DNA of 64,000 bases from Minisyncoccota bacterium (GCA_028687715.1 JAQTZP010000001.1:39876-103875); one strand, 5' to 3'. Counted from the stretch's first letter, positions 3,170 through 61,824 are shown. Numbers and translations: made by a program. Notes: generated by a model not told the origin, from the sequence alone.

Positions 3170-3799
3170 ATGAAGCATCCTAATTTTAATGAAGAAAAAA
3201 GATTAAAAAGGAAAGGCTATAAATTTATAATAGGATTAGATGAAGTTGGAAGAGGCTGTTTAGCCGGACCTGTTTTAGCGGCTGCAGTTTATATAACTAA
3301 TAATAAGTTTAAAGATAAAGGCATCAAAGACTCAAAAAAGCTGTCTTTTAGAAAAAGAGAACAAATCTATAATGATTTAATGGCTCGTTCTGATGTCAAA
3401 TGGGGGATAGGCAGAGTTTCAGAGAAGATAATAGATAAGATAAATATCTTTGAAGCTGCAAAGCTGGCTATGAAAAAGGCTGTTTTAGATTTAGAGAGAA
3501 AGATGAATATAAAGTCTGATTTCTTGATTTTAGACGGAAACTTCAAGATAGGTATAGATACTTTGCAGAAATCAATTATCAAAGCTGATGAGAAGGTTTT
3601 ATCCTGCGCTCTTGCTTCTATTATTGCCAAGGTCAAAAGGGATAGAATTATGTCAAATTATCACAACAGATATCCAGATTATCTTTTTAATAGGAATAAA
3701 GGGTATGGGACAAAGGTTCATATCAAGCAAATTAAAAATAACGGACCCTGTTTTATCCACAGGAAAACTTTTTTTCCTGTGAAAGAAATGATAGAATAA
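3170..3799 (+). CDS. rnhB: Ribonuclease HII
   Basis: IIGLDEVGRGCLAGPVLAAAV motif. The internal ATG at 3170 is preferred, because the 3071 start would overlap the dnaE start. Confidence 0.85.
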   Translation: MKHPNFNEEKRLKRKGYKFIIGLDEVGRGCLAGPVLAAAVYITNNKFKDKGIKDSKKLSFRKREQIYNDLMARSDVKWGIGRVSEKIIDKINIFEAAKLAMKKAVLDLERKMNIKSDFLILDGNFKIGIDTLQKSIIKADEKVLSCALASIIAKVKRDRIMSNYHNRYPDYLFNRNKGYGTKVHIKQIKNNGPCFIHRKTFFPVKEMIE

Positions 3800-3827: not shown

Positions 3828-6584
3828 ATGAAAAAAGAAACATTATATCTATTCTTGACTATTTCAATAATAGTTGCTTTTTTTATTCCTTTTGATTCTT
3901 ATGCTCTTTTAACTCCTCAAGTTTATTTAACTGAAATTCAATTGAATAAAGATACTTTTGAACCTAATCAGGAAATAACTGGAACTGTTAATTTGTGGAA
4001 TTATGAGAATTATGTGGTAAGCGACTTGTATTTTAATTTCCAGCTTATGGGAGAAGATGTTGATAATGTCCCTACTATGGCTATTGATGAGAAAACTGGT
4101 AATGAACAATTTACTCTACTGGCAGGGGAGAAAAAACACAAAAATTTTTCATATAGATTACCTAATAATTTACCGAACGGAAAACTTAAATTAAAGGTTC
4201 AGATTATTAACAGCAGGGGAGAGGGGATAAACTGGATATATAAAGAAATTATTATTGTAGGGGGAGGAAGATTTTTAAGTATAGGCAATTGTTGGTTTTT
4301 AAAAGAAGATTTAAAGTTTCCAACTGGAACAGGAGTTTACTACGAACCAAATGCAGTTCCGGAAGTGATTTTCGATATTATTAATTACTCTTCTTCTTCA
4401 ATCTCTGCTTACCCGAAGATAATAACCTATCGAAGAAACTCTATTGAAGCTGTAAGTGAAGATAAGGGCGGAATTGTAACTTTTAACCCTGATGATAAAA
4501 AAACACAAAGGCTTTTTCTTCCAAAACTTGAAAGGCCAGAATCATATTTAACAGCAATACGTTTCTACGATAGCGAAAGCAACGAACCAATTTCTAATAT
4601 CTCTTATTTCAGATGGATAATTTCAGGAGAAGATGACGCTCAAATTTTATTTGTCAGTTCGGATAAGAATTCTTATGAAGCAGATGAAATCGCAAAAATT
4701 AAAGTGCAGATTACTGGTCCGGCAGACCCAAGAGTTTCAGTAAATAGTTCAGATACAGAGATTAAAATACTTGACCAGAATGGCAAAGTTGTTGGAGAAA
4801 TTAAAAAAGAGACAAGATTTGGAGAGCTAGAGATTGATGTGCCGATTAAATCAAAGGTAGAAAATCCTAAAATTGAAGTAAAAATCACAAGCAATGGAAA
4901 GATTTTAGATGAGTATAATTTTATTGTTAATTCAGAGCAAAAAACAACTGAGCAAATACCTTTTTGGCAGAAAGATGGTTTTTTGACTAAATTTATTTTA
5001 TTTACAATATTATTTATAGCAGTTATGATAGGATTTATTTATTATTTTAGAAATAAAAAGAATAAATTTTTATTTATTTTATTGGCTATATTCTTAGGAA
5101 GTTTAGTTTTTATTTCTAATACGAGTGTAGTTTTTTCATTAGTGGAAGTTACAGAAGGCTGTCAAGATCCACATCATGGTGGCATGATTTCCGAAATTAG
5201 CATAAGTAGTCCTATTCCAAATTTAGTAATTAATCCTGGTGGTTCAATTCCGATAAATGGTCAAGTTTCAGTGGCAGATTGCGGCAACGGCTTATTTTTT
5301 AATAAGGTAACTTTTTACATAAAACAAGATGATAATGAACTAGAACATATGATAGATTGTTGCCAAAGAACTATAGAAAATTGTTCATTAGAGGGATGGT
5401 ATGGATGTGGCTGTTCTGTTGGTTGTGATAATTGTTATGGTGCTACCAGCCTTCATTACAAAGCATGTTATCCTTATACGGCGGTGCCTACTACAGGAGG
5501 ATGGAAGATTATAAAGGATGAAAACGCTGTTTTTTGTGATCAAGTAAAAGTATTAAAAACAGAGGGCAGTAACTTTATAAAATTGGGAGAATGTTATCCA
5601 AGAGATGTTCTAGAACATGGGCCTGGTACTTATATAGAATATAATCAAACCCCAAGTGTACCGTCTAATTTGGGATTTTATGGCAAAGCTCGTTTATATA
5701 TTCAGTTTTCTGGACTCCATGCAAGTAGCACTGGTTTAAGTGAATTTATGGCTGGTTGGTCTCCTCAATATGCAATAAAGATGGGTTGGGGAATCTGGAA
5801 GTGGGGTATTGTCTATCAAGATATATATATAAATAAACCTCCTTATACCAGTTCTTTGTCTGCTGACTCTAAGTATTGTGTTTCAGAGGGTATAGGAAGA
5901 GTTGATTTTAAATGGATATATAATGATGAAGATGTTATTGATGGAAATCTTGATAATCAGACCCAATATAATATTCAAATATCCGAAGATCAAAATTTTT
6001 ATAATCCGATAGTAGATAAATACATAAATCAGAATGTTCCTCCTTATAATCAAGGAACCTCTTCTGTTGTAGTCGTTCAAACACCTTCTTCCGGTCTTCA
6101 GATAGGATACAATAAGCATTATTATTGGAGAATAAGAGTTAAAGATAGTAATGAAGCTTGGTCCGGATGGTCGGGGGTAAATGATTTTTATACTCCTTCT
6201 CATCCTTACCCCTGGCCTAATTTTTCATCCGAACAGCTTCCCAATACTCAAAGAGTTAAATTTACAGATGAAACCAAGTTTTTTGATGGGAACTCAGGGC
6301 CGAGAACCTGGAGTTGGGATTTTGGAGACTCAACAGGTTCTTCTTTGCAAAATCCTGTTCATTTTTATTCACAAAGCGGGAGTTATCTAGTTAAATTACA
6401 TGTAGTTGATTCAGACGGTTACAGCTGTCCTCTTGAACCTAGGACTATTTCTGTTTCAAGCACGGATTTATTCAATATCCCAGGCTGGCGTGAAATTCCA
6501 CCCCCTATATTTAATCAAGGATTCTTAAACACTCTTTTTTCTCAAATCTTTGGCTTTATGCCCTGGAGCTTGCTAAATATTTGA
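3828..6584 (+). CDS. Large secreted/membrane protein with Cys-rich region, FN3-like and C-terminal PKD-like domain
   Basis: N-terminal signal-like segment and two mid-protein TM helices. WSWDFGDSTGSSLQNPVHFYSQSGSYLVKLHVVDSDG matches the PKD-domain pattern. Confidence 0.5.
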   Translation: MKKETLYLFLTISIIVAFFIPFDSYALLTPQVYLTEIQLNKDTFEPNQEITGTVNLWNYENYVVSDLYFNFQLMGEDVDNVPTMAIDEKTGNEQFTLLAGEKKHKNFSYRLPNNLPNGKLKLKVQIINSRGEGINWIYKEIIIVGGGRFLSIGNCWFLKEDLKFPTGTGVYYEPNAVPEVIFDIINYSSSSISAYPKIITYRRNSIEAVSEDKGGIVTFNPDDKKTQRLFLPKLERPESYLTAIRFYDSESNEPISNISYFRWIISGEDDAQILFVSSDKNSYEADEIAKIKVQITGPADPRVSVNSSDTEIKILDQNGKVVGEIKKETRFGELEIDVPIKSKVENPKIEVKITSNGKILDEYNFIVNSEQKTTEQIPFWQKDGFLTKFILFTILFIAVMIGFIYYFRNKKNKFLFILLAIFLGSLVFISNTSVVFSLVEVTEGCQDPHHGGMISEISISSPIPNLVINPGGSIPINGQVSVADCGNGLFFNKVTFYIKQDDNELEHMIDCCQRTIENCSLEGWYGCGCSVGCDNCYGATSLHYKACYPYTAVPTTGGWKIIKDENAVFCDQVKVLKTEGSNFIKLGECYPRDVLEHGPGTYIEYNQTPSVPSNLGFYGKARLYIQFSGLHASSTGLSEFMAGWSPQYAIKMGWGIWKWGIVYQDIYINKPPYTSSLSADSKYCVSEGIGRVDFKWIYNDEDVIDGNLDNQTQYNIQISEDQNFYNPIVDKYINQNVPPYNQGTSSVVVVQTPSSGLQIGYNKHYYWRIRVKDSNEAWSGWSGVNDFYTPSHPYPWPNFSSEQLPNTQRVKFTDETKFFDGNSGPRTWSWDFGDSTGSSLQNPVHFYSQSGSYLVKLHVVDSDGYSCPLEPRTISVSSTDLFNIPGWREIPPPIFNQGFLNTLFSQIFGFMPWSLLNI

Positions 6585-6901: not shown

Positions 6902-7327
6902 ATGGCGAGCCGTCATTTATCAAGGTCAATTGCAATGCAGAGTCTGTACGAATGGGACTTTATGGGTAAAAAGCCTGATGCTTTGGAAAAGATTGTTGAA
7001 AAAAACATTAAAGAGTTTGGTCCCGGCCTTGAAAGCGAAACATTCATTTGGGAGCTTATAAACGGGGTTATTTCTCATATTAAAGATATTGACAAGATTA
7101 TTGAAAAGGCAGCTCCGGAATGGCCTATTGAGCAGATTACAATTATAGACAGGAATGTTCTAAGAATTGGATTATACGAGCTTTTATACGAAGATAAAAA
7201 AGAAGTTCCTCCAAAAGTAGCCATTAATGAGTCAATAGAGCTGGCAAAGACATTCGGGGGAGAGAGCTCGGGCAAATTCATTAACGGAGTATTGGGAACT
7301 GTTTACAGAGAAATAGAAAAAGAATAA
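6902..7327 (+). CDS. nusB: Transcription antitermination factor NusB
   Basis: [14 protein letters not shown] ... [17 protein letters not shown]; typical NusB size. Confidence 0.8.
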
Positions 7328-7336
7328 AGAGCTATT

Positions 7337-8032
7337 ATGACTAAGGATTTTTCTTCTGTTGAAAAGAAATTAAACTTAAAATTTAAGAATAAGGATTTAT
7401 TGATTCAAGCATTTGTTCACAGGTCTTTTTTAAATGAAAATCCTGATTTCAAGATTTTTCACAATGAAAGACTGGAATTTTTAGGAGATGCAATACTGGA
7501 GCATATTGTAACAGAATATCTTTACAAAAAGTATCCCAAAGAGCCTGAAGGAGAGCTGACAATATGGAGAGCTGCTCTGGTAAACACTAAAATGCTGGCA
7601 AAAGTTGCTGAAGAGCTTGGTTTCAATGATTTTCTTCTGCTTTCCCAGGGAGAAGCTAAAGAAACAGGCAAAGCCCGCCATTATATTTTAGCTGACAGCT
7701 TTGAAGCGTTTATAGGAGCTTTTTATTTAGACCAGGGGCTTGAGAAATGCCGTGAGTTTATCAATAAAAACCTTTTAAAGGAGCTTCCTGAGATTATTGA
7801 AAGCGGTATTTACAAAGACTCAAAATCCCATTTTCAGGAAAAAGCCCAGGAGAAAAGAGGCATTACCCCGACTTACAGCGTTTTAAAAGAATCAGGTCCT
7901 GACCATAATAAGCGCTTTGTTGTCGGTGTTTTCTTGGGCAGGGAATTAATAGCAAAAGGAGAGGGTCTTTCAAAGCAGGAGGCAGAAGAAGAAGCTGCTA
8001 AAAACGCTTTAGGGAAAAAAGAATGGCAATAA
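7337..8032 (+). CDS. rnc: Ribonuclease III
   Basis: NERLEFLGDAILEHIV signature plus a C-terminal dsRBD (HNKRFVVGV...GEGLSKQEAEEEAAKNAL). Confidence 0.9.
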   Translation: MTKDFSSVEKKLNLKFKNKDLLIQAFVHRSFLNENPDFKIFHNERLEFLGDAILEHIVTEYLYKKYPKEPEGELTIWRAALVNTKMLAKVAEELGFNDFLLLSQGEAKETGKARHYILADSFEAFIGAFYLDQGLEKCREFINKNLLKELPEIIESGIYKDSKSHFQEKAQEKRGITPTYSVLKESGPDHNKRFVVGVFLGRELIAKGEGLSKQEAEEEAAKNALGKKEWQ

Positions 8033-10679: not shown

Positions 10680-10741
10680 TTCAGTGGTAGAACACGTTCT
10701 TGGTAAGAACGAGGCCGAGAGTTCAATTCTCTCCATCGGCT
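10670..10741 (+). tRNA. tRNA-Thr (anticodon GGT)
   Basis: Acceptor GCCGATG/CATCGGC; anticodon stem CGTTC/GAACG with loop TTGGTAA; T arm GAGAGTTCAATTCTCTC. Confidence 0.85.
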
Positions 10742-10767
10742 CTTAATAAATTAAATTCCTTAAAATT

Positions 10768-10929
10768 ATGGCAAAAAGAAAACCATTTGTTAAACTTCAG
10801 TGTCAGGAATGCAAAAGAATAAATTATTTTACTCATAAGTCAAAAAAAGCAGATGAGAAGAAATTAGAGATAAAGAAATTCTGCAACTGGTGCAGGAAGC
10901 ACACAGTCCACAAAGAGGCGAAAAGGTAA
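10768..10929 (+). CDS. rpmG: Ribosomal protein L33 (53 aa; below ORF-track cutoff)
   Basis: Hand translation: MAKRKPFVKLQCQECKRINYFTHKSKKADEKKLEIKKFCNWCRKHTVHKEAKR*. Confidence 0.85.
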   Translation: MAKRKPFVKLQCQECKRINYFTHKSKKADEKKLEIKKFCNWCRKHTVHKEAKR

Positions 10930-10949
10930 AATAAAATAGAATTAAGCTT

Positions 10950-11237
10950 ATGAAAAGAGATAATAAAGAAATAAAAATCGGTGCCTGTGGGATTTGTTGT
11001 GAGAGTTGTGGTCTCTACACGAGGGCTGTTTGTTCTGGCTGTAATAAAACCGAAGAAGGCGTGAGATTCTTGAAAAGCATCAATGCTAATTGTCCTATTT
11101 TGGAATGTGCTGTGAGAAATAAGATAGATGTGTGCTCAAGAGATTGTGAAAATTTCCCGTGTGATAAATTTAGAGATTGGCCATTGGCTAAAGAATGGCT
11201 CGAAATGTATAAAGAAAGATTAAAAAGAAAGAAATAG
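10950..11237 (+). CDS. Small Cys-rich protein, DUF3795-like (putative metal/Fe-S binding)
   Basis: GACGICCESCGLY...CSGC...CPILECA...CSRDCENFPCDKF cysteine pattern. The family name is recalled from memory. Confidence 0.5.
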   Translation: MKRDNKEIKIGACGICCESCGLYTRAVCSGCNKTEEGVRFLKSINANCPILECAVRNKIDVCSRDCENFPCDKFRDWPLAKEWLEMYKERLKRKK

Positions 11238-11283
11238 GTTGTCCCACCGTTAGGAAAAATCCGTTATAATAAAAACAGAATTT

Positions 11284-26984: not shown

Positions 26985-27060
26985 GGGCGGGAGGCAGCGG
27001 CTTTTTCCTAAAGTCGAGAATTTCTGATAAAATAAGTTCGAGCGGAGTCATATAGATACA
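26985..27060 (+). repeat. Degenerate fourth copy (D) of the junction element: half hairpin plus promoter-like TGATAAAAT plus AGTTCGAGC
   Basis: gggcgggaggcagcggctttttcc...gaatttctgataaaataagttcgagcggagtcatata aligns with copies B and C (58360-58420; 61665-61735). Confidence 0.5.
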
Positions 27061-27135
27061 TATTAATAATTTTGACAAATTATAAGCGGGTAGTATTATT
27101 AATCAATACAGCTCTTTTTTTCAAAGGAGAATCAG

Positions 27136-51495: not shown

Positions 51496-53157
51496 ATGAT
51501 TAAAAGAGTTTTAAACGGCCAATTCCTTAATACCCAGACAGAAAATATTACTAAAGCCTCATTTATCTTGGGAGCTGCTTATCTTCTAAGCGGTGTTTTG
51601 GGCCTTGTAAGGGACGGGCTTTTAGCAGGCAGATTTGGAGCTGGTTCTGATTTGGATGTCTACTATGCGGCATTTAGAATTCCAGACTTTATTTCAATGG
51701 TTTTAATAATGGGTTCTATTTCTGCTGCCATTATTCCTATTTTCAGCGAGTATCTGGTCCGTTCTAAAGAAGAAGCCTGGAAGTTCTTCTCAAACCTGTT
51801 AAACCTGTTTTTATTCTCTTTGATAATAATATGCCTTATTTTGATTGTCTTTACGCCCCAGCTTATCTCTCTAATAGTGCCTGGGTTTTCTGCGGCTCAG
51901 AAAGAAACAGCTGTTTTTTTAACAAGGATTATGTTTTTAAGCCCCATTCTTTTGGGGATAAGCAATGTCATCTCCGGAGTTCTTTTGGTCTTTAAAAGGT
52001 TTTTAGTGACATCTTTAAGTCCTATTCTGTATAATCTTGGCATAATAATAGGCATTTTATTCTTTGTTCCTAAATTAGGAGTAAAAGGTCTTGGATGGGG
52101 AGTGGTTTTAGGAGGGGCTCTCCATCTTTTAATTCAACTGCCTGTTCTTTTTTCTTTGGGATTTAAAGTTAATAGGATATTTAATTTCTCAGAACCAGGA
52201 TTTTTAAAAACTATAAAGCTCACTATTCCCAGAGCCTTTGGTTTGGCAGTCTCCCAGATAAACCTAATTGCAGTCACAGTAATCGGTTCAACTCTTGCAG
52301 CAGGAAGCATCGCTGTTTTTAATTTTGCCAATAACTTTCAAGGCCTGCCTATAACCTTTATCGCTGTTTCTTTCTCCACTGCTGCTTTTCCTTTTTTAGC
52401 CCAATATTATTCCCAGAAGAATAGAGAAAAGCTTGTTGAAGAGTTTTCTAATGTATTCAGGCAGATTCTTTTTCTGATAATCCCTTTAAGCGTCCTGATA
52501 TTTGTTCTAAGGGCTCAGATAGTCAGGATAATTTTAGGCAGGGGCAAGTTCGGCTGGTTTGACACCCGTCTTACAGCAGCTTGTTTGGGAGTCTTTGCTT
52601 TAAGCATTTTTGCCTACGGTCTTTCTCTTTTAATCTCTAAGACGTTCTATGCTTTTCAAAATACCAAGATACCGGCAATAATAAGCTCTTTTTGCGTGTT
52701 TTTAAATATAGGGTTATCTATTCTGTTTGTTTGGCTTTCGAGCTTTGAAAACATATTTAGGATATATGTTGTTGATTTCCTTGACCTTGGAGGCCTAAAA
52801 GACATCTCTGTTGTCGGACTGCCTTTGGCATTTTCGCTGTCAGGCATAGTTCAGTTTATTCTGCTTTTGTTTTTTCTATACAAAAAGATAGGGGATTTTA
52901 AATCAAAAGAGATATTTGATTTTTTCATCAGGATATTTTTAGCAGGACTGCTCATGGGAATTGCTTCATACATTACGCTTTATTATATAAGCGGTTTCGT
53001 GAATATGCAGACATTTATCGGACTTTTCATCCAAGCAGGCTCTGCCGGTTTCTTAGGTATCATCGTCTATATCCTTTTTTCGCTATTAATAGACTTAAAA
53101 GATTTAAGAACTATTACTTTTTCTATTTTTAAGAAGTTTAGAAGAAATGGACAATAA
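51496..53157 (+). CDS. murJ: Lipid II flippase MurJ (MviN)
   Basis: About 14 TM helices. N-terminal LLSGVLGLVRDGLLAGRFGAGSDLDVYYAAFRIPDF is typical of MurJ. Confidence 0.8.
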   Translation: MIKRVLNGQFLNTQTENITKASFILGAAYLLSGVLGLVRDGLLAGRFGAGSDLDVYYAAFRIPDFISMVLIMGSISAAIIPIFSEYLVRSKEEAWKFFSNLLNLFLFSLIIICLILIVFTPQLISLIVPGFSAAQKETAVFLTRIMFLSPILLGISNVISGVLLVFKRFLVTSLSPILYNLGIIIGILFFVPKLGVKGLGWGVVLGGALHLLIQLPVLFSLGFKVNRIFNFSEPGFLKTIKLTIPRAFGLAVSQINLIAVTVIGSTLAAGSIAVFNFANNFQGLPITFIAVSFSTAAFPFLAQYYSQKNREKLVEEFSNVFRQILFLIIPLSVLIFVLRAQIVRIILGRGKFGWFDTRLTAACLGVFALSIFAYGLSLLISKTFYAFQNTKIPAIISSFCVFLNIGLSILFVWLSSFENIFRIYVVDFLDLGGLKDISVVGLPLAFSLSGIVQFILLLFFLYKKIGDFKSKEIFDFFIRIFLAGLLMGIASYITLYYISGFVNMQTFIGLFIQAGSAGFLGIIVYILFSLLIDLKDLRTITFSIFKKFRRNGQ

Positions 53158-54952
53158 AGAGATTAGAAATTTCGTTATTATCAGCCATATAGACCACGGA
53201 AAATCCACTTTAGCTGACAGATTCTTAGAATTAACAGGGGCAATCTCAAAAGATAAGATGAAGCCCCAGTTTTTAGATATGATGGATTTAGAAAGAGAAA
53301 AGGGGATTACTATAAAGATGCAGCCGGTAAGGATGCTTGTCAAAGATGCCTCAGGCAGAGAAATTATTCTCAATCTTATTGATACCCCAGGCCATGTTGA
53401 TTTCTCCTACGAGGTTTCCCGGTCTTTAGCCGCAGTTGAAGGAGCGGTTCTTTTAGTTGATGCAACCAAAGGAATTCAAGCCCAGACTTTGGCTAATTTA
53501 GAGCTGGCTGAAAATCAGAACCTAACGATTATTCCAGTGGTAAATAAAATAGATCTATCCCAGGCTCAGATTGAGAAAACAGAAAAAGAACTGGCCCAGC
53601 TTTTGAATATAGAAGCAGGAAAGATAGTAAAGATTTCTGCCAAGTCAGGCTTAAATGTGGAAAAGATACTTAATTTGATAATAACTGATATTGATGCGCC
53701 TGATAAAGATAATATCTATAAGCCTTTTAGAGCCCTTATATTCGATTCAGATTATGACCCGTATAAAGGAATAATCGCTTATGTCAGAGTAGTAGACGGA
53801 GAGATAAAATTAGGAGATAAAATAAGGCTGATGGCTCAGGAAGCAGAAGGGGATTCAAAAGAACTCGGGTATTTCACTCCTCAAATGTCTTCTGAGGATA
53901 GATTATCTGCTGGAGAAATAGGATATATTGCTACCGGCATCAAGGAACCTGATAAGATAAGAGTAGGCGATACGATAATTCTTTTAAAAGATAAAGATAA
54001 TCCTGAAGTTATTGCCCTGTCGGGGTATAAAGAGATAAGGCCTATGGTTTTTGCCAGTTTTTATCCAGAGAGCGCTGATGATTTTAATCTATTGAGGGAT
54101 TCGCTTAAGAAATTAAAACTCAATGACCCTTCTTTGACTTTTGAACCAGAAACAAAAGAGGCTTTGGGCAGAGGCTTCCGCTGCGGATTCTTGGGAACTC
54201 TCCATACCGAGATTATTTCTGAAAGGCTTAAAAGAGAATTTGGCTTAAATCTTGTTATTTCAAGCCCTTCGGTAGTTTATAGGGTAATTGATAACAAAGG
54301 ACAGGAAAAGTTCATCTATTCCGCTTCAAGCTGGCCTGAATCTTCTTTTATCAAAGAGTCTGAAGAGCCCTGGGTTTATTTAGAGGTTATAAGTCCTGTA
54401 AGCTATATCGGTTCTTTGAATGAGGTTTTAAAGAATCTAAGAGGAAGCTACATTGATACAAAGTATTTAGGCGAAGAAAAAGTCATACTATCTTATGAAG
54501 TTCCTTTAAGGGAGATTATTACAAACCTTTATGACAAGATAAAAAGCGCAACCCAGGGCTATGCTTCAATGAGCTATAAAGTGATTGATTACAGACCCAG
54601 CAATTTGGTTAAATTAGAGGTTCTAATTGCAGGTGAAAAAGAAGAGGCATTTTCAAAAATAGTAAGTGAAGAGCAATCCTATAAAGAAGCCAGAGCTTTG
54701 GTTTTAAAGATTAAAGAGTTTTTACCGAGCCAGCAGTTTTCTGTTTCAATCCAAGCTTTGGTTGGAGGAAAGATTATTGCCAGGGAAACTTTAAAGGCTC
54801 AGAGAAAAGATGTGACAGGATATTTATACGGAGGGGATTACACCCGAAAAAGGAAGCTTTTGGAAAAGCAGAAAAAAGGCAAGAAGAAATTAAAAGAAAT
54901 AGGGAAGATAAAAGTCCCTCCAAAAGTATTTTTAGAAGTTTTCAGAGGATAG
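53147..54952 (+). CDS. lepA: Elongation factor 4 (LepA)
   Basis: IRNFVIISHIDHGKSTLADR, DTPGHVDF, NKIDL, and a LepA-specific C-terminal region. Confidence 0.9.
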   Translation: MDNKEIRNFVIISHIDHGKSTLADRFLELTGAISKDKMKPQFLDMMDLEREKGITIKMQPVRMLVKDASGREIILNLIDTPGHVDFSYEVSRSLAAVEGAVLLVDATKGIQAQTLANLELAENQNLTIIPVVNKIDLSQAQIEKTEKELAQLLNIEAGKIVKISAKSGLNVEKILNLIITDIDAPDKDNIYKPFRALIFDSDYDPYKGIIAYVRVVDGEIKLGDKIRLMAQEAEGDSKELGYFTPQMSSEDRLSAGEIGYIATGIKEPDKIRVGDTIILLKDKDNPEVIALSGYKEIRPMVFASFYPESADDFNLLRDSLKKLKLNDPSLTFEPETKEALGRGFRCGFLGTLHTEIISERLKREFGLNLVISSPSVVYRVIDNKGQEKFIYSASSWPESSFIKESEEPWVYLEVISPVSYIGSLNEVLKNLRGSYIDTKYLGEEKVILSYEVPLREIITNLYDKIKSATQGYASMSYKVIDYRPSNLVKLEVLIAGEKEEAFSKIVSEEQSYKEARALVLKIKEFLPSQQFSVSIQALVGGKIIARETLKAQRKDVTGYLYGGDYTRKRKLLEKQKKGKKKLKEIGKIKVPPKVFLEVFRG

Positions 54953-55085
54953 CGCTGATGTTTTAAAATTGCCTTAAAAATGTTAAAATAAAGGCGCTAT
55001 AAGAAAAACAATCATTCCCAAGGTCACTATTGTTGCTGATACTATCCAGACTATTCTAATTAGTTTTTGATTCTTCATATTATCT

Positions 55086-55496
55086 ATGGTAGCAAAATTT
55101 AGAAAAATTAAAAAGAAGGGATTGAAAAAGAATTCTTCTTTTTCAATCCTTATAACCCTTATTCTAGTTTCAGCAATAGTTCTTTTGATAAATACAAACG
55201 TGAAGATAGGCAGTAAAAGGCAGGAGTTAATATCAAGAGCCAATTCTTTAAAAGAACAGATTGAAAACATAGAGGAGAAAAACAGCATTTTAAAAGAAAG
55301 TATTTCTCGGGCAGAAACTAATGATTATGTAGAAAAGATTGCCAGAGAGCAGCTTGGCATGAAAAAGCCAGGAGAAGAAGTAGTGGTTATAAATAAGGAA
55401 AAGAATGAAAAGGAATCTGTGGAATCAAAGAGCAGTCAAGTTAATAATTCATGGAGCTTTAAAGCAATCTGGGATTGGCTTAAAAGCAGGTTTTGA
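55086..55496 (+). CDS. Septum formation initiator (FtsB/DivIC family)
   Basis: TM helix plus coiled coil; YVEKIAREQLGMKKPGEEVVVI is the family-typical end. Confidence 0.6.
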   Translation: MVAKFRKIKKKGLKKNSSFSILITLILVSAIVLLINTNVKIGSKRQELISRANSLKEQIENIEEKNSILKESISRAETNDYVEKIAREQLGMKKPGEEVVVINKEKNEKESVESKSSQVNNSWSFKAIWDWLKSRF

Positions 55497-55504
55497 TTCA
55501 TTAT

Positions 55505-55578
55505 GCGAGGTTAGTATACTGGCATTATGCAACCTTCCCAAGGTTGAGAAGCGGGTTCGATTCCCGTACCTCGCTCCA
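55505..55578 (+). tRNA. tRNA-Gly (anticodon CCC), CCA encoded
   Basis: Acceptor GCGAGGT/ACCTCGC; anticodon stem CAACC/GGTTG with loop TTCCCAA; T arm GCGGGTTCGATTCCCGT. Confidence 0.8.
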
Positions 55579-55692
55579 CAATCAAACTTTTTTCGCTTTT
55601 CTTGAAATTTTTCGTGGCGGCGCTTTGCGCCGCCCGCGAAAATTTGGGAAAATTTCCAGAAAGTCAGATTATTGTGCGTTTATACAACCTCA

Positions 55693-55868
55693 CTCGAACT
55701 CATTTTATCAAAAATTCTTGAGAAAAACAATTGTCCCGCCCCGCTTGTGCGGGGCGGGACAGAAAACCCAAAAGTCGCTCGGGCGGGGCGGGAAGAAAAA
55801 GGGGTGTGGGGAAAATGAATTCCCGCCCCCGCCCTCGCTTTCTATGCGGGAAAAATTTATTTTTTAAA
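55693..55868 (-). repeat. Junction element copy A (two GC-rich hairpins, T-tract, promoter-like box); perfect inverted copy of 58231..58406
   Basis: Base-by-base comparison with the reverse complement of 58231-58406: 176/176 identical. Hairpin 1 is GTCCCGCCCCGC-TTGT-GCGGGGCGGGAC. Hairpin 2 is GGGCGGGGCGGGAA...TTCCCGCCCCCGCCC. Confidence 0.9.
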
Positions 55869-56318
55869 AATCATTTTAATCCTCGGCTCACCGTCTCCAA
55901 AATAATTTTCCTTTGGTTTTCCGACTTGTTTAAATCCAAAAAATTTATATATATGCATCGCTGCTGCATTGTCTGGATGTGTAAGCAGTTCAACTATTTT
56001 TACTTCTTTCAAATCTTCGAGTAAAATTTTTATGGCTTCTTTTCCAATTCCTTGGCCCTTATATTTTGAATTAACACAGAGCCCACTAATATATGCTGTA
56101 TTTTTATTTTTCATCTCATATGAAATATCACCCACGATTTCACCGTCCATAATAATGGCATAAACCATTGCATTTCCTTTTGCCAGCTCATCCAGCCATT
56201 CTTTTTCAGTCAGCATTGCTGAATATGTTTTTGAAGACGCAGTTTTTTCAATTTCAATCAATGTTGGAATGTCTTCCTCCTCAATTTTTCGTAAACTGAT
56301 TTTTAATTTATTTTTCAT
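55857..56318 (-). CDS. GNAT family N-acetyltransferase
   Basis: CVNSKYKGQGIGKEAIKILLE (acetyl-CoA loop Q/RxxGxG/A). The last 4 codons lie inside repeat A. Confidence 0.8.
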   Translation of the reverse strand: MKNKLKISLRKIEEEDIPTLIEIEKTASSKTYSAMLTEKEWLDELAKGNAMVYAIIMDGEIVGDISYEMKNKNTAYISGLCVNSKYKGQGIGKEAIKILLEDLKEVKIVELLTHPDNAAAMHIYKFFGFKQVGKPKENYFGDGEPRIKMIFKK

Positions 56319-56322
56319 AGGA

Positions 56323-56715
56323 TTACCTATTCAGTAAGAAATTTTTAATCTCTGGAGATATGTCTTGAATTTTCTGGTATTTAATTATTAAGTCGGCAAT
56401 CCCCCTTGTTGTGTCCTTAATTTGTGTTTCGTGTTTCATAATAACAATAACTTTTTTACCAAAAGCGTAAGCAATCCCGGCCTCATATGCCCTACCAGTC
56501 GGCTTGTCTGTCATATCGATCAAAAGAGCATCAGATTTTTTAATTTCGTCTTTTGTTTTTTGCATTAAATCTTTTGGATTATCAAAAACTTTTTGATAAT
56601 TTTCTACATCTCGTATAAAACAAAAGTCTTCAAAACCTGCGGTTTTTACTAAAGAACAAAGACTCTCTATATTTTGTTTGCTATCACCAAAAGATGCGGT
56701 AATAAAAATTCTCAT
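56323..56715 (-). CDS. Nucleoside 2-deoxyribosyltransferase-like small Rossmannoid protein
   Basis: MRIFITASF...ALLIDMTDKPTGRAYEAGIAYAFGKKVIVIMKH. Confidence 0.5.
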   Translation of the reverse strand: MRIFITASFGDSKQNIESLCSLVKTAGFEDFCFIRDVENYQKVFDNPKDLMQKTKDEIKKSDALLIDMTDKPTGRAYEAGIAYAFGKKVIVIMKHETQIKDTTRGIADLIIKYQKIQDISPEIKNFLLNR

Positions 56716-56716
56716 T

Positions 56717-57265
56717 TTATTTTTTTGAAATTAAACTCAAAAGTAAGGGAAACTTTTTGTATGGCTGATTAAACATATTAGAACCCATATGGCCTTCGTG
56801 TTTTATAATTTGCGTGCCACCAAGATTGTCAAAAAATAACCTACCTTGTTTATCGTTGTATTGCCATGGGTCATCATCTGAATTTATGTAATAGAATTCT
56901 TCTGCTTTGTCTTTTATTTTTGCCCAATCAAAATCATCAACGCTGTTTTCACTGTCTGCATTTTTCCGTAATGCTTTAGCATAACCAGATACCAAAATCG
57001 CCTGTTTGATTTTTACATCCAGTTTTTCTAAAACACTTGGAATTATTTGAGCGCCGGCCGAATGCCCAATAATAACTGTTTCAGAAGTAAACTCCCAATT
57101 TTCCAAAATAAAAGGCAACCAATCTTTGCGATTTGGTTTGTCGCTTGCAGGAAGTTGCGGAAGCCAGACTTTATATCCTATTTTTTCTAATTCCTCTTTA
57201 AGCCAAGGAAACCAAAAATCGGTTGGTTTGTCTTTTGTTCCGTGTAATATAATTGCGTTTTTCAT
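56717..57265 (-). CDS. Alpha/beta serine hydrolase (YdeN/RBBP9-like)
   Basis: AIILHGT..., nucleophile elbow IIGHSAGA, C-terminal HEGHMG. Confidence 0.65.
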   Translation of the reverse strand: MKNAIILHGTKDKPTDFWFPWLKEELEKIGYKVWLPQLPASDKPNRKDWLPFILENWEFTSETVIIGHSAGAQIIPSVLEKLDVKIKQAILVSGYAKALRKNADSENSVDDFDWAKIKDKAEEFYYINSDDDPWQYNDKQGRLFFDNLGGTQIIKHEGHMGSNMFNQPYKKFPLLLSLISKK

Positions 57266-57344
57266 AATTATTTTATCCTACCAAAAAATTGTGCTAATTA
57301 AAAGTTAAAGCCCCGTCGATTGCTCGTACGGGGCTCTTGCGATG

Positions 57345-57995
57345 TCAGCTGCAGCGCAGGCACTTCTTGCGATTGTGCCGGGACAGAATCCTTACCGTAC
57401 TAGACGGAGTTGGAATCTGCGATTCGATTTCGTAGACACAATTGAAGACGATGCCACAGCTTTTGCACTTTCCGACTTGCTCACTACTATCAGGTACAGG
57501 ACCCTGAACAGACTTGTTCCACCCTGGAGCGTGGGTTTCGCAAAGTCCGCCACCGGGCGTGGGTGTGTCGCAGAGTGCACACGTGCACTGGCAACTCTCC
57601 AAGTGTTCGTAACAGACGTAACAAATACACTTGCAGAAAGCAGTATCACGGTTGCACTTGTAGCACCAGGCAGGATCGTCGTAATCGTCATCATCATAGC
57701 CGTCGTCCGGCTCGATGATAGAACGGTTTTCTTCGATTGCCCGGAATTCCTCCTGCATCCACTTCCACTCTTGGTCGGTGATTTGGCCAGAGATCAGGTG
57801 AGCTGAGTTAAAGTCACCTGCCTCGGGACAATTACCACCAGTCACCTTTTTCAAGGCGCAGTCGTAGCACAACGGCTCGTCCTGCTTACGCCCAAGAGCG
57901 TACCCCCAATATGTGATTTCGTCGGAATCATTCCTCTCAAAGAACTTGTTGCAAATTTTACACTTCTGGCTTGAAACTTTCTTCTGCTTCGACAT
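57345..57995 (-). CDS. G+C-rich Cys-rich protein (216 aa) with several CxxC pairs and an acidic DDGYDDDDYDD patch
   Basis: KCKICNKFF...CYDC, WCYKCNRDTAFCKCICYVCYEHLESCQCTCALCD, KCKSCG, KKCLRCS. Own promoter (TTGACA-17-TAATAT at 58178-58150, minus strand). Terminator AGCCCCGT...ACGGGGCT (57310-57336). Confidence 0.6.
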   Translation of the reverse strand: MSKQKKVSSQKCKICNKFFERNDSDEITYWGYALGRKQDEPLCYDCALKKVTGGNCPEAGDFNSAHLISGQITDQEWKWMQEEFRAIEENRSIIEPDDGYDDDDYDDPAWCYKCNRDTAFCKCICYVCYEHLESCQCTCALCDTPTPGGGLCETHAPGWNKSVQGPVPDSSEQVGKCKSCGIVFNCVYEIESQIPTPSSTVRILSRHNRKKCLRCS

Positions 57996-58230
57996 TTCTC
58001 AATCTCCTTTTACCGGGTTTGTAAACAAACTGACGATAATTGGAGATATACCCGCTTGCTCCTTTCGGAGGGGTGAAGGGCTGAACCAATCTCTCTTGAT
58101 CCTGATTCCCAACAGACCAAGAGAATATATCTAAATTTGCTCCGTAATTATATTATCATATTATTAAATATATGTCAATAGTGTGTGGTCTAAACAGTGT
58201 GGGTGGCCACAACAACACAATAAAAAAATA

Positions 58231-58406
58231 TTTAAAAAATAAATTTTTCCCGCATAGAAAGCGAGGGCGGGGGCGGGAATTCATTTTCCCCACACCCCTT
58301 TTTCTTCCCGCCCCGCCCGAGCGACTTTTGGGTTTTCTGTCCCGCCCCGCACAAGCGGGGCGGGACAATTGTTTTTCTCAAGAATTTTTGATAAAATGAG
58401 TTCGAG
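58231..58406 (+). repeat. Junction element copy B (archetype orientation: hairpin 2, hairpin 1 plus T-tract, TTGTTT-17-TAAAAT, ATGAGTTCGAG)
   Basis: Identical to the reverse complement of 55693-55868. Lies in the divergent region between the Cys-rich gene and the kinase-like gene. Confidence 0.9.
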
Positions 58407-58514
58407 CAGAATTGTATATATGCTCCAGTATATTTACAACCACGCTTTAAATAAGACGTTGTTGTCTTATTTAAAGATCGTTCTTTCACAACAAAAATAA
58501 GGAGGACTCTGAAA

Positions 58515-59144
58515 ATGATCGTGCAAAAGTCTCTGTTCGTTACTTTTGAGGGCCCCAACGGCATCGGGAAGACTACCGTTATCAAAGATGTCGCGCAAAA
58601 ACTGAGCGTTTTGGGATGCAGTCTTCTGTGTACTAAAGAACCCACCGGTTCGTCGCTTGGTGACTTCTTGAGAAAAGCAGAGGAGTTATACGGGAGAGAA
58701 GTTCTCGCCTGTATTGCGGCGGCGGATCGATATTTTCACATAGAAAAAGAAATCGCACCAGCGTTAGCGACAGGTAGAATCGTTCTTTCCGACCGATACG
58801 TCGAATCGTCACTGGTACTTCAACGTCTTGACGGGTGTTCGCTCGAATTTATCTGGAGCATTAACTCGCAAATTCTTGTTCCTGATTTAAGCATCATTTT
58901 CTTCGCTGATCCTGTGATCATCGGACAACGACTCGTAACTAAGAGAACAAAGTTGAGTCGTTTTGAGCGCGATGAAACGAGAAAGCAAGAAATGTTCTTC
59001 TACCACGAAGCGGCAGAGTTCATCGCTCAAAAAGGATTTCATGTCCTTTTGTTGGAGAACGAAAAACAATCAGTGGGTGATACTTCTGAATACATTGTGG
59101 TTGAAGTCCAAAGGCTACTCAAAAAAAAGGAGGAAGCATCATGA
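58515..59144 (+). CDS. Thymidylate-kinase-family P-loop protein (dTMP-kinase-like)
   Basis: LFVTFEGPNGIGKTT (P-loop), TKEPTGSSLG, SDRYVESSLVLQ (DRY/DRH-like). AAGGAGG RBS. Confidence 0.65.
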   Translation: MIVQKSLFVTFEGPNGIGKTTVIKDVAQKLSVLGCSLLCTKEPTGSSLGDFLRKAEELYGREVLACIAAADRYFHIEKEIAPALATGRIVLSDRYVESSLVLQRLDGCSLEFIWSINSQILVPDLSIIFFADPVIIGQRLVTKRTKLSRFERDETRKQEMFFYHEAAEFIAQKGFHVLLLENEKQSVGDTSEYIVVEVQRLLKKKEEAS

Positions 59145-60211
59145 AAAAACCGATCATTTCCGTTAACCAAATGATGTCCTGTTATTTCCGTACTTCAGTT
59201 CAATCACCTTACCGGAAAGCGCTCGTGCAGATTACCGAATGGTGCAATCTGCATTGTTCGCATTGCTTTGTCTCGGCCGGACAATACGGTGACACCATGT
59301 CGCTGGAAAGTGTCCGTGATATTCTTGTGCCTCGTCTCAAAGAATGTCGCGTGCTGAACGTAACGCTTACTGGCGGCGAGCCATTCGCGCACCCTAACGT
59401 CATCGAGATTGTATCGCTTTGCAAAGATGCTGGCATGAAAGTTGGCATCTGTACGAACGCAACTTGCATTAGCGAAGATCAGATGAAAGCGCTCGCAGCG
59501 TTGGGAGCACATTGCAACGTCAGTTTGGACGGTTTCTCTCCGGAGAGTCATGGCAGGTTTCGCGGCGATAAAGCGTCGTTTGCAACCACCATTTCAACCA
59601 TTGAGATGGTGGCCAGATACGGTTTGTTGCAAGGGTTTTTGGTGACTCCTAACAATCTCGCCGAGGTCGAGGAGTATGCAAAGATTTGCGAGTTCGCTAC
59701 GGTAAACGGTGCAACGTATGTGTTGATGAATCCGCTTTCGTCCATGGGAAGAGGCGTAAAGACGGCGGGAAAGCTCGGAGTTTCCAACGAGGTAATGCGT
59801 CAGATTGCCAACGTAACTTCACAGTTCGCGGACAAAGTCGAGATAGTACCTATCCGATTTCCGAACGAAAAGAAGTTGCCGCTTACGGGATGCGAAGCGG
59901 GCAATATTATCTACGTTTTTACCCTCGGCGAACTCACGGTATGTCCCTATCTAGTGTTTTCAGCACGGACGCCGCAGAGTCAACACAAGGCAGAAGAATT
60001 TATCGTTGGCAATATCTTTCGCGATGCCAATATTGCCGTTCGCCTTGATGAATACAAACTCCTTGAGCGGTATCGTCTCGGTGGTAATCCGACATGCGGA
60101 GGATGTCGTCTTAACGCCGAGTGCGGCAAAGGATGTCCCGCAGCGATCATTTCCTCTGGCAAGCGAATAGAGGAAATGGACGCAGAGGTGTGTCCGGTCT
60201 TCATTCGGTAA
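59141..60211 (+). CDS. Radical SAM enzyme with C-terminal SPASM/twitch-type auxiliary-cluster domain
   Basis: CNLHCSHCF (CxxxCxxC), LTGGEPFAHP. C-terminal GCEAG...CPY...CGGCRLNAECGKGCPA...C. ATGA overlap with the kinase-like gene. Confidence 0.8.
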   Translation: MKKPIISVNQMMSCYFRTSVQSPYRKALVQITEWCNLHCSHCFVSAGQYGDTMSLESVRDILVPRLKECRVLNVTLTGGEPFAHPNVIEIVSLCKDAGMKVGICTNATCISEDQMKALAALGAHCNVSLDGFSPESHGRFRGDKASFATTISTIEMVARYGLLQGFLVTPNNLAEVEEYAKICEFATVNGATYVLMNPLSSMGRGVKTAGKLGVSNEVMRQIANVTSQFADKVEIVPIRFPNEKKLPLTGCEAGNIIYVFTLGELTVCPYLVFSARTPQSQHKAEEFIVGNIFRDANIAVRLDEYKLLERYRLGGNPTCGGCRLNAECGKGCPAAIISSGKRIEEMDAEVCPVFIR

Positions 60212-60217
60212 ACATAA

Positions 60218-60256
60218 CCCGCAGTGGAATTTTAACATTCTACTGCGGGATTTTTT
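60218..60256 (+). terminator. Intrinsic terminator after the radical SAM gene
   Basis: CCCGCAGT-loop-ACTGCGGG followed by ATTTTTT. Confidence 0.75.
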
Positions 60257-60277
60257 ATGGTAAAATAAAAAAATAAT

Positions 60278-61021
60278 ATGAATAATCTATCAATTTTTAT
60301 CTGGAATATAGCAAATCCGTCGTTTGAGCGTGCCGTTAAACAGGCAGAATGGATTCGCAGGAGAAAAGAAGACATTTTTGTCTTAACCGAGATAAAAGTA
60401 AGTAGCGGATGTTTGTTTCTTAAAAAATATTTCCAAGCATATGGGTATTACGTACTCTTCCCCGATATTGAAGATAGGGAATACGGAGTAATGATTTTGA
60501 GTAAGATTCCCCTGTCAGGGGGGACTCTTCAATATATGGATTTTATCCCATCGCGAGCTATGTATGGGAAGTTTTCATTTTTTGATAAAGATATAGAGAT
60601 TGGAGGTATTTATGTTCCTTCCCGCGATGCAAGCGAGAAGAAAATCAAAAAGAAGAAACTTTTTCTACAAACTCTTTTAGATGCTCTCCAAAAATCGAAC
60701 TTAGACAATCCGCGTATCGTTTGCGGAGATTTTAATATACTTGAACCTAATCATAATCCGCATTATCCTTTCTTCAAAGATTGGGAATATGATTTTTACA
60801 GTCAATTATCGAAACATCAATTAAGTGACGCGTGGCGTTTTTTGTATCCATCCAAACAAGAATATAGTTGGATTGGAAAAACGGGTGATGGATATCGATA
60901 TGATTATTGTTTTGTTTCAAATGTTTTATTGCCGTCGATAAAAAATTCGTTTTACCTCCATGAGCCAAGACTTCAAAAATTAAGCGACCATTCCGCGCTT
61001 ATTACTGAATTACATTTATGA
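60278..61021 (+). CDS. Endonuclease/exonuclease/phosphatase (EEP, ExoIII-like) family protein
   Basis: IFIWNIAN...DIFVLTEIK...CGDFNI...SDHSALITEL. Confidence 0.7.
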   Translation: MNNLSIFIWNIANPSFERAVKQAEWIRRRKEDIFVLTEIKVSSGCLFLKKYFQAYGYYVLFPDIEDREYGVMILSKIPLSGGTLQYMDFIPSRAMYGKFSFFDKDIEIGGIYVPSRDASEKKIKKKKLFLQTLLDALQKSNLDNPRIVCGDFNILEPNHNPHYPFFKDWEYDFYSQLSKHQLSDAWRFLYPSKQEYSWIGKTGDGYRYDYCFVSNVLLPSIKNSFYLHEPRLQKLSDHSALITELHL

Positions 61022-61617
61022 TTGAAGTAGAAAAAAAGTTTATATTGAACGAGCAAGATAAAAAGCGATTAACAAAGAACGCTCAATTTCTCAATGAGCG
61101 CATTTTTACTGATATTTATTACGATACAGAAATTTTTTCTCTAACATCAAAAGATAAATGGTTTCGTTCTCGTGAGGGCAGATTTGAGCTGAAACTCCCT
61201 CTACACGACGGAGTCGACAGATTAGCTGACCAATACGATGAGTTAGAAGATGAGCAGAAAATAAGAGAAGCTCTAAATCTGCCCTCTAACGGAAATCTTG
61301 CTGATGATTTGATAAAAGCCGGATATTCACCATTTTGCACTTGTAAAACTAATCGAAGAAAGTATAAGAAAGAGCCATTTATTATTAACCTTGATATTAT
61401 TGATTTTCAAGATTTTACCTACAACATCGGAGAAATTGAGTTGATGATTAGCAATAAATCTGAAATTGAAGATGCGAGTAAAAAGATAATGTATTTTGCA
61501 AAGACACAGAATCTTGTAGTCACACCAGTGCGGGGGAAAATTATTGAATATTTAAAACGTGCAAAACCAAATCACTATCAGACTCTTGTGAAGAGAGGGG
61601 TTGTTGAGGATTTTTAA
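61018..61617 (+). CDS. CYTH-domain (triphosphate tunnel metalloenzyme) protein
   Basis: MIEVEKKFIL (ExExK signature) and later RFELKLP, IGEIELM beta-strand acidic/basic pattern. ATGA overlap with the EEP gene. Confidence 0.7.
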   Translation: MIEVEKKFILNEQDKKRLTKNAQFLNERIFTDIYYDTEIFSLTSKDKWFRSREGRFELKLPLHDGVDRLADQYDELEDEQKIREALNLPSNGNLADDLIKAGYSPFCTCKTNRRKYKKEPFIINLDIIDFQDFTYNIGEIELMISNKSEIEDASKKIMYFAKTQNLVVTPVRGKIIEYLKRAKPNHYQTLVKRGVVEDF

Positions 61618-61620
61618 CCC

Positions 61621-61740
61621 TCTTTTTGCCCGCGAACCGACAGGTTTTCCTGCCCGCCCCCGCCGTTCGGCGGGACGGGACGTTGTTTTTTATAGGAATT
61701 CTTAATAAAATGAGTTCGAGCGTAGTTGTGAATATACTCC
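61621..61740 (+). repeat. Junction element copy C (diverged: single imperfect GC hairpin plus T-tract, TTGTTT-17-TAAAAT, ATGAGTTCGAGC)
   Basis: GCCCGCCCCCGCC-GTTC-GGCGGGACGGGAC followed by GTTGTTTTTT, then cttaataaaatgagttcgagcgtagttgtgaatatactcc. Aligns with copy B. Confidence 0.7.
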
Positions 61741-61824
61741 ATAATCAAACTTAACTCTTTTTCAGATACTTTTTGATGGACTTCCATTTTTAAACCCATA
61801 TTTTATTATTAAATAAAAATAATA

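Follow-up and report, generated by a model that had tools for sequence, protein, structure and literature searches.

The DNA considered here is a stretch of 64,000 nucleotides from a Minisyncoccota bacterium (GCA_028687715.1, JAQTZP010000001.1:39876-103875), referred to below as the window, and the element of interest within it is a small gene cassette built around a radical S-adenosylmethionine (rSAM) enzyme. The original prediction, which was made from the sequence alone, flagged positions 57345-60256 as a foreign-looking, G+C-rich trio: a cysteine-rich protein of 216 amino acids encoded on the minus strand (57345-57995) and, divergent from it on the plus strand, a coupled operon for a thymidylate kinase (Tmk)-like protein (58515-59144) and an rSAM enzyme with a SPASM domain (59141-60211). 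All three open reading frames (ORFs) are found at these positions, the ATGA overlap between the two plus-strand genes is present at 59141-59144, and the motifs FEGPNGIGKTT, DRY and CNLHCSHCF, as well as a seven-cysteine SPASM array, are evident in the translations; the cysteines of the 216-amino acid protein number 21 and not approximately 24, as had been claimed. Hand counts of G+C (32/60 within the block and 22/60 outside it) proved correct, and the G+C content of the flagged block amounts to 47.1% vs. 35.3% in the remaining window. Similarly, third-position G+C (GC3) values of 0.60, 0.535, and 0.46 make the three genes the top three of the 37 long ORFs of the window, for which the background is 0.33 ± 0.07.

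The difference in composition is thus borne out, but the block is not one unit. Two segments, 57301-58180 and 58449-61626, are shared independently with other genomes, and the flagged trio in fact consists of two unrelated units, namely an orphan cysteine-rich gene and a four-gene cassette. By blastn, the second segment displays 81-82% nucleotide identity to loci L001 and L004 (Ryanbacteria) over its exact span, with homology ending at both borders, and this 3.18-kb stretch constitutes a discrete unit common to lineages of the Candidate Phyla Radiation (CPR). Because the span shared with L001 and L004 runs from 58449 to 61626, the operon reaches beyond the end first proposed, 60256, and takes in two further plus-strand genes: one encoding an ExoIII/APE1-like nuclease/phosphatase of the endonuclease/exonuclease/phosphatase (EEP) family (60278-61021; PF03372, E = 7e-14) and one encoding a CYTH triphosphate-tunnel enzyme (61018-61617; PF01928, E = 7.5e-15) that overlaps the EEP stop codon. 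Both had been left out because of their A+T-rich composition. The whole plus-strand cassette therefore comprises a leader followed by tmk-like, rSAM/SPASM, EEP, and CYTH genes, with coupling apparent from overlapping start and stop codons and from stop-to-stop distances equal to the gene lengths. L001 is a complete metagenome contig of 3292 nucleotides that consists of exactly the four-gene cassette and ends in 29-nucleotide terminal inverted repeats (1-31, 3262-3292), which suggests that assemblies break at inverted repeats flanking the cassette. Several of the closest rSAM homologs also lie on contigs of 3.29-3.34 kb.

Composition varies within the cassette itself. GC3 is 0.40-0.66 for the tmk-like and rSAM genes and 0.21-0.35 for the EEP gene (and the CYTH gene, if present) of one and the same cassette, and this split between a G+C-rich and an A+T-rich half is also seen in L001 and L004 and, for the tmk-like, rSAM, and EEP genes, in L006. 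Since the split is maintained across hosts spanning 36% to 45% G+C, the signal that had been read as foreign is a property of the cassette and not a mark of recent entry into the genome represented by the window. A terminator-like hairpin followed by a T-run (60218-60249, plus strand) sits exactly at the composition break between the rSAM and EEP genes; it is retained in L001 and L004, and an equivalent hairpin occurs in L150. A second match of the terminator-like scan, a leader hairpin 5' of the tmk-like gene (58445-58476, plus strand), has a stem preserved by compensatory changes among the window, L001, and L004 (GAC/GTC, AGC/GCT, GGC/GCC). This hairpin is not found in L005, L006, L150, or L153 and is confined to the closest relatives. 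Neither this leader, nor that of the cysteine-rich gene, nor the repeat described further below matches any Rfam family.

A scan of one genome per species identified 289 relatives of the rSAM enzyme among 185,579 species genomes. The best 80 of these 289 genomic loci, together with three contigs, compose a set of 83 loci in which six-frame ORFs were searched with the proteins of the window. The rSAM, tmk-like, and EEP genes are adjacent in 77 of the 83 (contig ends truncate three of the six loci that deviate), and the EEP gene adjoins the rSAM gene in 79. Carriers include CPR bacteria, Actinomycetota, Bacteroidota, Bipolaricaulota, and Melainabacteria. The order rSAM-Tmk-EEP is found in Actinomycetota, Bipolaricaulota, Melainabacteria, and Ferruginibacter, and also in other CPR loci such as L015, while the order Tmk-rSAM-EEP belongs to one CPR group that includes the window. 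On a Streptomyces linear plasmid, PGAP annotates in succession a radical SAM protein, a dTMP kinase, an endonuclease/exonuclease/phosphatase, and a MazG-like protein, their stop codons overlapping start codons. Clustering of the 780 genes that surround the 80 genomic loci gave 719 groups, of which 686 contain a single gene, indicating that only the operon travels. Taken together, these comparisons portray the cassette as a compact unit that has been transferred widely and horizontally.

The Tmk-like protein is a P-loop nucleoside monophosphate (NMP) kinase (PF02223, E = 3.9e-26) that passes the TIGR00041 cut-off (101.6 bits vs. 83.25). Among 75 operon-linked kinases (Staphylococcus aureus numbering), R48, R70, R92 (of DRY), Q101, and R141 (of the LID) are invariant, S96 and S97 are nearly so, and the P-loop glycines and lysine occur in all but one gapped sequence; the kinase thus keeps the residues of Tmk catalysis and those that read the pyrimidine at its uracil face. 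The canonical thymidine pocket is not found, with both the stacking aromatic and the sugar-side Tyr/Phe replaced. F66, which we take from S. aureus and Mycobacterium tuberculosis TMK structures to be the phenylalanine that stacks on thymine, is substituted by C, V, I, or A and is aromatic in 0 of 75 sequences; Y100, the tyrosine beside the deoxyribose, is L in 75/75; and S69 is D in 75/75. The kinase is a paralog with a remodeled nucleoside pocket, probably dedicated to a thymidylate-like, non-canonical substrate. The simplest alternative would be coincidence, in which a housekeeping tmk gene happens to stand beside an unrelated rSAM gene and a DNA-repair xth gene, and the TIGR00041 score, the PGAP label of dTMP kinase, and the housekeeping genes that flank the cassette in CPR genomes speak for such a view. 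Co-occurrence data already contradict it: in no fewer than five phyla these genes stand next to one another with coupled translation, arranged in either of two orders and between unrelated flanks, and the 289 relatives are few for so large a number of species genomes. Also opposed to it are the altered kinase pocket and the presence, in the CPR locus L153, of a second, ordinary Tmk gene near the cassette kinase, and coincidence is consequently regarded as very improbable.

The rSAM/SPASM protein is the signature enzyme of the cassette. It matches PF04055 and PF13353, its membership in the SPASM group follows from C35/C39/C42 (CX3CX2C) and a C-terminal seven-cysteine array (C251, G263-x4-C268, C319-x2-C322-x5-C328-x3-C332, C351), and all of these cysteines are invariant in 84 sequences. 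Identity across phyla, covering CPR, Streptomyces and other Actinomycetota, and Abditibacteria, is 55-88%. Homologs are 354-397 amino acids long with no added domain, the core beginning at approximately residue 30. The enzyme reaches no NCBIfam equivalog cut-off; the best score is that of StsB (103 bits vs. 625), and other models for maturases of ribosomally synthesized and post-translationally modified peptides (RiPPs) remain far below theirs (AlbA, 79 vs. 850 bits; PapB, 61 vs. 340). An AlphaFold model (pLDDT 71, pTM 0.76) resembles SkfB, SuiB, BlsE, viperin, and anSME in a generic manner (TM approximately 0.6, identity no higher than 22%), and a sequence search of solved structures agrees, returning generic rSAM matches (SkfB, SuiB, BlsE) at 22% identity or less. 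Fusion proteins were found neither among rSAM homologs nor for the EEP protein, for which they had been sought as Rosetta-stone evidence.

Given this family, a peptide substrate has to be considered, and the original prediction had named one: the cysteine-rich protein, to be crosslinked through thioether or other bonds by the SPASM enzyme, the kinase playing an accessory part. In the window the two genes are neighbors in divergent orientation, many SPASM enzymes are peptide maturases, and StsB, AlbA, and SkfB rank among the best similarities of the rSAM enzyme. Comparative genomics effectively refutes the idea, to which almost no probability can now be assigned. A homolog of the cysteine-rich gene is present in 0 of the 83 rSAM loci; such homologs occupy three other contexts, none with an rSAM or Tmk gene; and the cysteine-rich gene and the cassette have separate homology boundaries. 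The rSAM enzyme carries no RiPP recognition element (RRE) or PqqD-like peptide-recognition domain according to Pfam, it falls far short of the maturase cut-offs, and because the cassette genes abut or overlap there is no room for a small ORF that might serve as a precursor gene. Furthermore, identities of 55-88% between phyla are atypical of RiPP maturases. Of the novel system first envisaged, in which an rSAM enzyme and a dNMP kinase-like protein were joined by a cysteine-rich partner, the third partner was thus wrong, while a novel conserved system does exist with a different membership.

The cysteine-rich gene, never found with the other two genes elsewhere, was rejected as a partner of the cassette on account of this lack of co-occurrence and of the separate boundaries, and is an orphan and an unrelated neighbor. 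Its unit (57301-58180, minus strand) includes, as had been predicted, its own promoter, leader, and terminator, all of which were confirmed: the promoter is a near-consensus TTGACA-17-TAATAT with a TG extension of the -10 element (58178-58150), the leader of approximately 148 nucleotides folds modestly better than shuffled sequences (z = -2.5), and a terminator hairpin lies 3' of the gene. Over its full length the unit is 73% identical by blastn to Staskawiczbacteria loci L084-L087, where the gene (8001-8633 in L084) lies among housekeeping genes. A word search yielded 13 homologs and a profile search of 1.84 billion representatives yielded 121, most of which are stand-alone N-terminal domains of approximately 100 amino acids; the contexts recorded are thrS/NTPase-dnaE in Staskawiczbacteria and two unrelated sites. 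No match to the protein was obtained in Pfam, NCBIfam, PADLOC, or PHROG, and Foldseek returned no fold match in the PDB for its AlphaFold model. The protein possesses two domains, an N-terminal Zn-ribbon/helical domain that occurs solo in approximately 100 representatives and a C-terminal module (WCYxCNRDTAFCxCIC...GGGLC) that in P0139 forms part of a fusion with a cold-shock domain and in L155 (5422-6378) adjoins one, a link that hints at nucleic acid binding. A GC3 of approximately 0.6 is maintained by the gene in two different hosts, and the leader is conserved at the nucleotide level.

The second suggestion of the original prediction, that a kinase is paired with a nucleotide-modifying rSAM enzyme after the fashion of prokaryotic viperins (pVips), fits in its logic: the tmk-like and rSAM genes are adjacent in the 77 loci noted above, the further conserved partners are nucleotide enzymes, and the substrate pocket of the kinase is remodeled. 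The cassette enzyme is itself no viperin, scoring 58.6 bits against a cut-off of 180 for NF038283 over residues 31-148 only. What likens the cassette to pVips is the position of an rSAM gene next to an NMP kinase gene and the nucleotide-analog logic this implies, together with matches of the PADLOC pVip models to the rSAM core. These matches are limited to the N-terminal residues 30-140; a seven-cysteine SPASM domain, absent from viperins, occupies the C-terminus in place of the NTP-binding extension of those enzymes, whose products are 3'-deoxy-3',4'-didehydro-NTPs, and the EEP protein and nucleoside triphosphate (NTP) pyrophosphatase are additional conserved partners.

The EEP protein carries the full ExoIII/APE1 catalytic set (N10, E38, Y112, D151, N153, D209, D237, H238), residues kept in 97% or more of 76 sequences. 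Among solved structures it comes nearest to Mth212/ExoIII (E = 1e-10) and APE1, and it falls below the xth equivalog TIGR00633 (80.9 bits vs. 99.05; 66.3 bits for the Streptomyces EEP). The rSAM and EEP trees are incongruent; no gene replacement is claimed on this ground, as the incongruence may be an effect of composition. The affinity of this protein to DNA enzymes raises the possibility that the cassette operates on polymers, the rSAM enzyme modifying or repairing DNA or RNA in the manner of spore photoproduct lyase, the ExoIII-like enzyme nicking or trimming where the lesion or mark lies, and the other two enzymes acting in support. Support for such a claim comes from the fact that the rSAM and EEP genes are the most constant pair, remaining together in L018, L024, and L152 where the kinase is absent, from the DNA AP endonucleases and ExoIII that are the nearest solved relatives of the EEP protein, and from several conserved basic residues within it. 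Swappable NTP pyrophosphatases and an NMP kinase point instead to free nucleotides, the clusters of flanking genes include no conserved partner of the DNA-binding, helicase, methylase, or glycosylase kind, and the rSAM enzyme resembles spore photoproduct lyase in the common core only. A polymer-level role is therefore considered improbable.

Evidence for a free nucleotide is found in the gene that follows EEP, the fourth position of the cassette, which was surveyed by clustering flanking ORFs, checking the resulting families against Pfam, and re-scanning the loci. A NUDIX gene holds this position in approximately 46 loci, mostly of Pseudonocardiales and some of CPR; a small MazG-like gene in 18 loci, mostly of Streptomyces; and a CYTH gene in approximately 12, the window among them, with L004 carrying both CYTH and NUDIX. 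That three unrelated NTP (pyro)phosphohydrolase folds share one position argues strongly that the cassette handles a nucleoside triphosphate, and the NUDIX members are similar to MutT and to pyrimidine-dNTP pyrophosphatases. In a Bipolaricaulota locus, L009, a second P-loop kinase, of dNK/CMK-like type (7097-7732), follows EEP in place of a pyrophosphatase.

Most likely, then, the cassette makes or handles an unusual pyrimidine nucleotide. As to how, a pathway at the level of the monomer is tentatively preferred, in which the Tmk-like kinase and the SPASM rSAM enzyme would together make a non-canonical, thymidylate-like nucleotide while the pyrophosphatase and the ExoIII-like enzyme would serve supply and self-protection; this is a real possibility, if somewhat short of a probable one. 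The kinase would phosphorylate a thymidylate-like (d)NMP, thereby supplying the substrate of the rSAM enzyme or activating its product, and the rSAM enzyme would perform the key radical modification of sugar or base. The CYTH enzyme, or its NUDIX or MazG-like counterpart elsewhere, may hydrolyze the triphosphate form, both feeding the monophosphate pool and protecting the producer, and the EEP enzyme may trim the analog from 3' DNA ends or dephosphorylate the product. That product could be a nucleotide or nucleoside antimetabolite of antiviral or antibiotic activity. Somewhat less probable is the fuller proposition that the rSAM enzyme catalyzes a hitherto unrecognized reaction on a nucleotide resembling thymidylate, such as altering the sugar ring or saturating or rearranging the base, and so yields a new natural antimetabolite of this kind. 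A pyrophosphatase and a nuclease that cleans 3' ends would then give the producer a modular immunity, and the cassette would spread as a unit of approximately 3 kb between phyla as far apart as CPR bacteria and Streptomyces.

The same enzymes could serve the opposite end. In a sanitation, repair, or resistance pathway, the pyrophosphatase and ExoIII-like nuclease would rid both the pool and the DNA of a pyrimidine nucleotide that is damaged or xenobiotic, the rSAM enzyme would restore the monophosphate to a usable form, and the kinase would re-phosphorylate it, so that the cassette would guard against a nucleoside-analog antibiotic or a specific lesion and would not itself be a producer. MazG-like and ExoIII enzymes are classic house-cleaning and 3'-end repair enzymes, the NUDIX members are MutT-like or pyrimidine-dNTP pyrophosphatase-like, and many hosts are soil actinomycetes, which commonly encounter nucleoside antibiotics. 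A divergent LysR-type regulator, of a kind typical of substrate-induced operons, is located 5' of the operon in 45 loci among the 83, for the most part from Pseudonocardiales, and the context in CPR genomes is one of housekeeping genes. Opposed to this, a canonical dTMP product would require neither the replacement of F66 and Y100 nor a kinase beside a normal Tmk, and we know of no rSAM enzyme that repairs a free nucleotide. Sanitation is judged rather unlikely, albeit the foremost competitor of a biosynthetic pathway.

Several observations weigh against biosynthesis of a modified nucleotide and should be set beside the evidence for it. Firstly, a pathway devoted solely to sanitation would be just as likely to include a pyrophosphatase that breaks down the product, and the LysR-type regulator is also in keeping with an operon induced for detoxification or salvage. 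Secondly, the set of genes is not constant, as the kinase-free pairs of rSAM and EEP genes attest and as does L026, in which the rSAM gene occurs without EEP. Thirdly, no exporter is conserved in the cassette, recognizable defense genes make up only approximately 6-7% of immediate neighbors, and the neighbors in CPR genomes are housekeeping genes. Additionally, the likeness to the thmABC genes discussed next is one of gene content and described function.

In Photorhabdus asymbiotica, the thmABC genes encode an rSAM enzyme, a nucleoside kinase, and an NTPase that make 4'-thiothymidine; the NTPase ThmC alone confers self-resistance, and the three genes co-cluster while their flanks vary between species (PMC12691670). 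The cassette shares with thmABC the compact set of rSAM enzyme, kinase, and nucleoside triphosphatase and a thymidine type of chemistry, and the protection of the producer proposed above for the CYTH enzyme is modeled on ThmC. It differs in that the kinase ThmB is a nucleoside kinase of AbmG-like type, with Tmk-family membership not established, in that thmABC has no ExoIII-like EEP gene, and in that thmABC is reported only in Gammaproteobacteria. Ophion (OpnABC), a system directed against jumbo phages, combines an rSAM enzyme with a PHP protein and a phosphoribosyltransferase (PRTase), and its authors propose interference with nucleic acids (bioRxiv 10.1101/2025.09.30.679545). A three-gene logic of rSAM enzyme, phosphoesterase/exonuclease-type enzyme, and nucleotide-salvage enzyme is common to Ophion and the cassette; in Ophion, which is gammaproteobacterial, the partners are not homologous to those of the cassette, the second being PHP and not EEP and the third a PRTase and not Tmk-like, and there is no pyrophosphatase position.

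Among characterized maturases, SkfB, AlbA, StsB, and PapB share the rSAM core and seven-cysteine SPASM domain and provide the best sequence and fold matches; they are set apart by the features already described, namely the missing RRE and precursor gene, the scores far below cut-off, and the nucleotide enzymes that are the conserved partners of the cassette enzyme. A more distant parallel lies in phage T4, in which gp56 is a dCTPase/dUTPase, gp42 a dCMP hydroxymethylase, and gp1 a dNMP kinase. There, a pyrophosphatase makes the dNMP, a modifier acts at the level of the monophosphate, and a dedicated kinase accepts the modified nucleotide, a pathway that makes sense of the grouping of these three kinds of enzyme. 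In the cassette the modifier is an rSAM/SPASM enzyme and not a member of the ThyA family, the cassette is cellular with no cultured-phage match, and modification of DNA by it is conjectural.

The cassette is defined by none of the models in NCBIfam, Pfam, or PADLOC, and full-text searching of the literature found no paper on this combination of genes. In PADLOC-DB 2.0, no single system is matched by all components; the kinase gives partial matches to PDC-M51B (1e-9) and VakA (1e-5), and the EEP, CYTH, and cysteine-rich proteins give none. The cassette is best placed with the nucleotide systems that unite an rSAM enzyme and a kinase, and it stands a fair chance of embodying new chemistry. Should a modified pyrimidine nucleotide indeed be made, a new rSAM reaction and a new natural nucleoside analog would be added to those on record, and nucleoside analogs have an established record of yielding antivirals and antibiotics; the cassette would, on this account, bring its own resistance genes, and its three to four genes of approximately 3 kb are directly expressible. 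Ultra-small CPR bacteria and soil actinomycetes would then share a mobile module of chemical warfare or immunity. If the cassette serves sanitation or resistance, it would represent a new way of handling non-canonical nucleotides and would explain a Tmk paralog that annotation mislabels as a housekeeping dTMP kinase.

A defensive role for the cassette is possible. WhiJ-type HTH_31/DUF5753 regulators account for 11-14 of 144 immediate neighbors, and the few neighbors pertaining to defense or mobility include PglW, Cas3, type I and type IIG restriction-modification enzymes (the latter 5' of the cassette in L009, 81-3107), LmuB, JetD, and two integrases. HicAB adjoins the cassette in L026, and in L059 (Ferruginibacter) the cassette has a TIR-domain gene on one side and a ParDE toxin-antitoxin pair on the other (4946-5926, 10695-11265). 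An origin in phages was considered and rejected, as no rSAM ortholog was detected in 50,697 phage records and four IMG/VR entries proved to be isolate genomes. A lone rSAM gene on IncF plasmids of Escherichia coli and Salmonella, considered as a thmA-like candidate, was also set aside, since it stands alone beside a Tn3 transposase. The example in L156 (3605-5041; E. coli plasmid NZ_LT985265.1) encodes a 478-amino acid protein that aligns to 88% of the length with 25% identity to the enzyme of the window, adjoins a Tn3 transposase and a recombinase, and is unrelated to the cassette. In L018 (4052-10516; Patescibacteria), lepA is followed by rSAM, EEP, and CYTH genes with no tmk-like gene, all of them A+T-rich, in a region partly syntenic with window positions 53147-61617; the site 3' of lepA may be ancestral, and the G+C-rich Tmk-rSAM part may be a later arrival.

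The surroundings of the cassette in the window include a repeat of approximately 200 nucleotides. Copy B (58221-58427), between the cysteine-rich gene and the cassette, is 95% complementary over 203 nucleotides to 55676-55878 and thus inverted with respect to copy A (55661-55878), to which it is 95-98% identical and which sits just 3' of a tRNA-Gly gene (55505-55578). According to blastn and folding, copy B holds a G+C-rich hairpin and a promoter-like module of 59 nucleotides that recurs at 61683-61741 (80%) and 27005-27063 (68%). Copies A and B bracket a minus-strand block of GNAT, NDT-like, Ser hydrolase, and cysteine-rich genes. The second of these (56323-56715, minus strand), beside the GNAT and Ser_hydrolase genes, encodes a 130-amino acid protein at the threshold of the Pfam family Nuc_deoxyrib_tr (29.0 vs. 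28.8 bits); it may be another nucleoside-salvage gene, and no such gene was found near the cassette in other loci. A partial copy C (61670-61752; 75-80% identity), in direct orientation to copy B, lies just 3' of the cassette, which is consequently bracketed by direct repeats, and motifs related to the repeat also flank the cassette in L004. Such an arrangement could permit inversion, or else exchange of the cassette.

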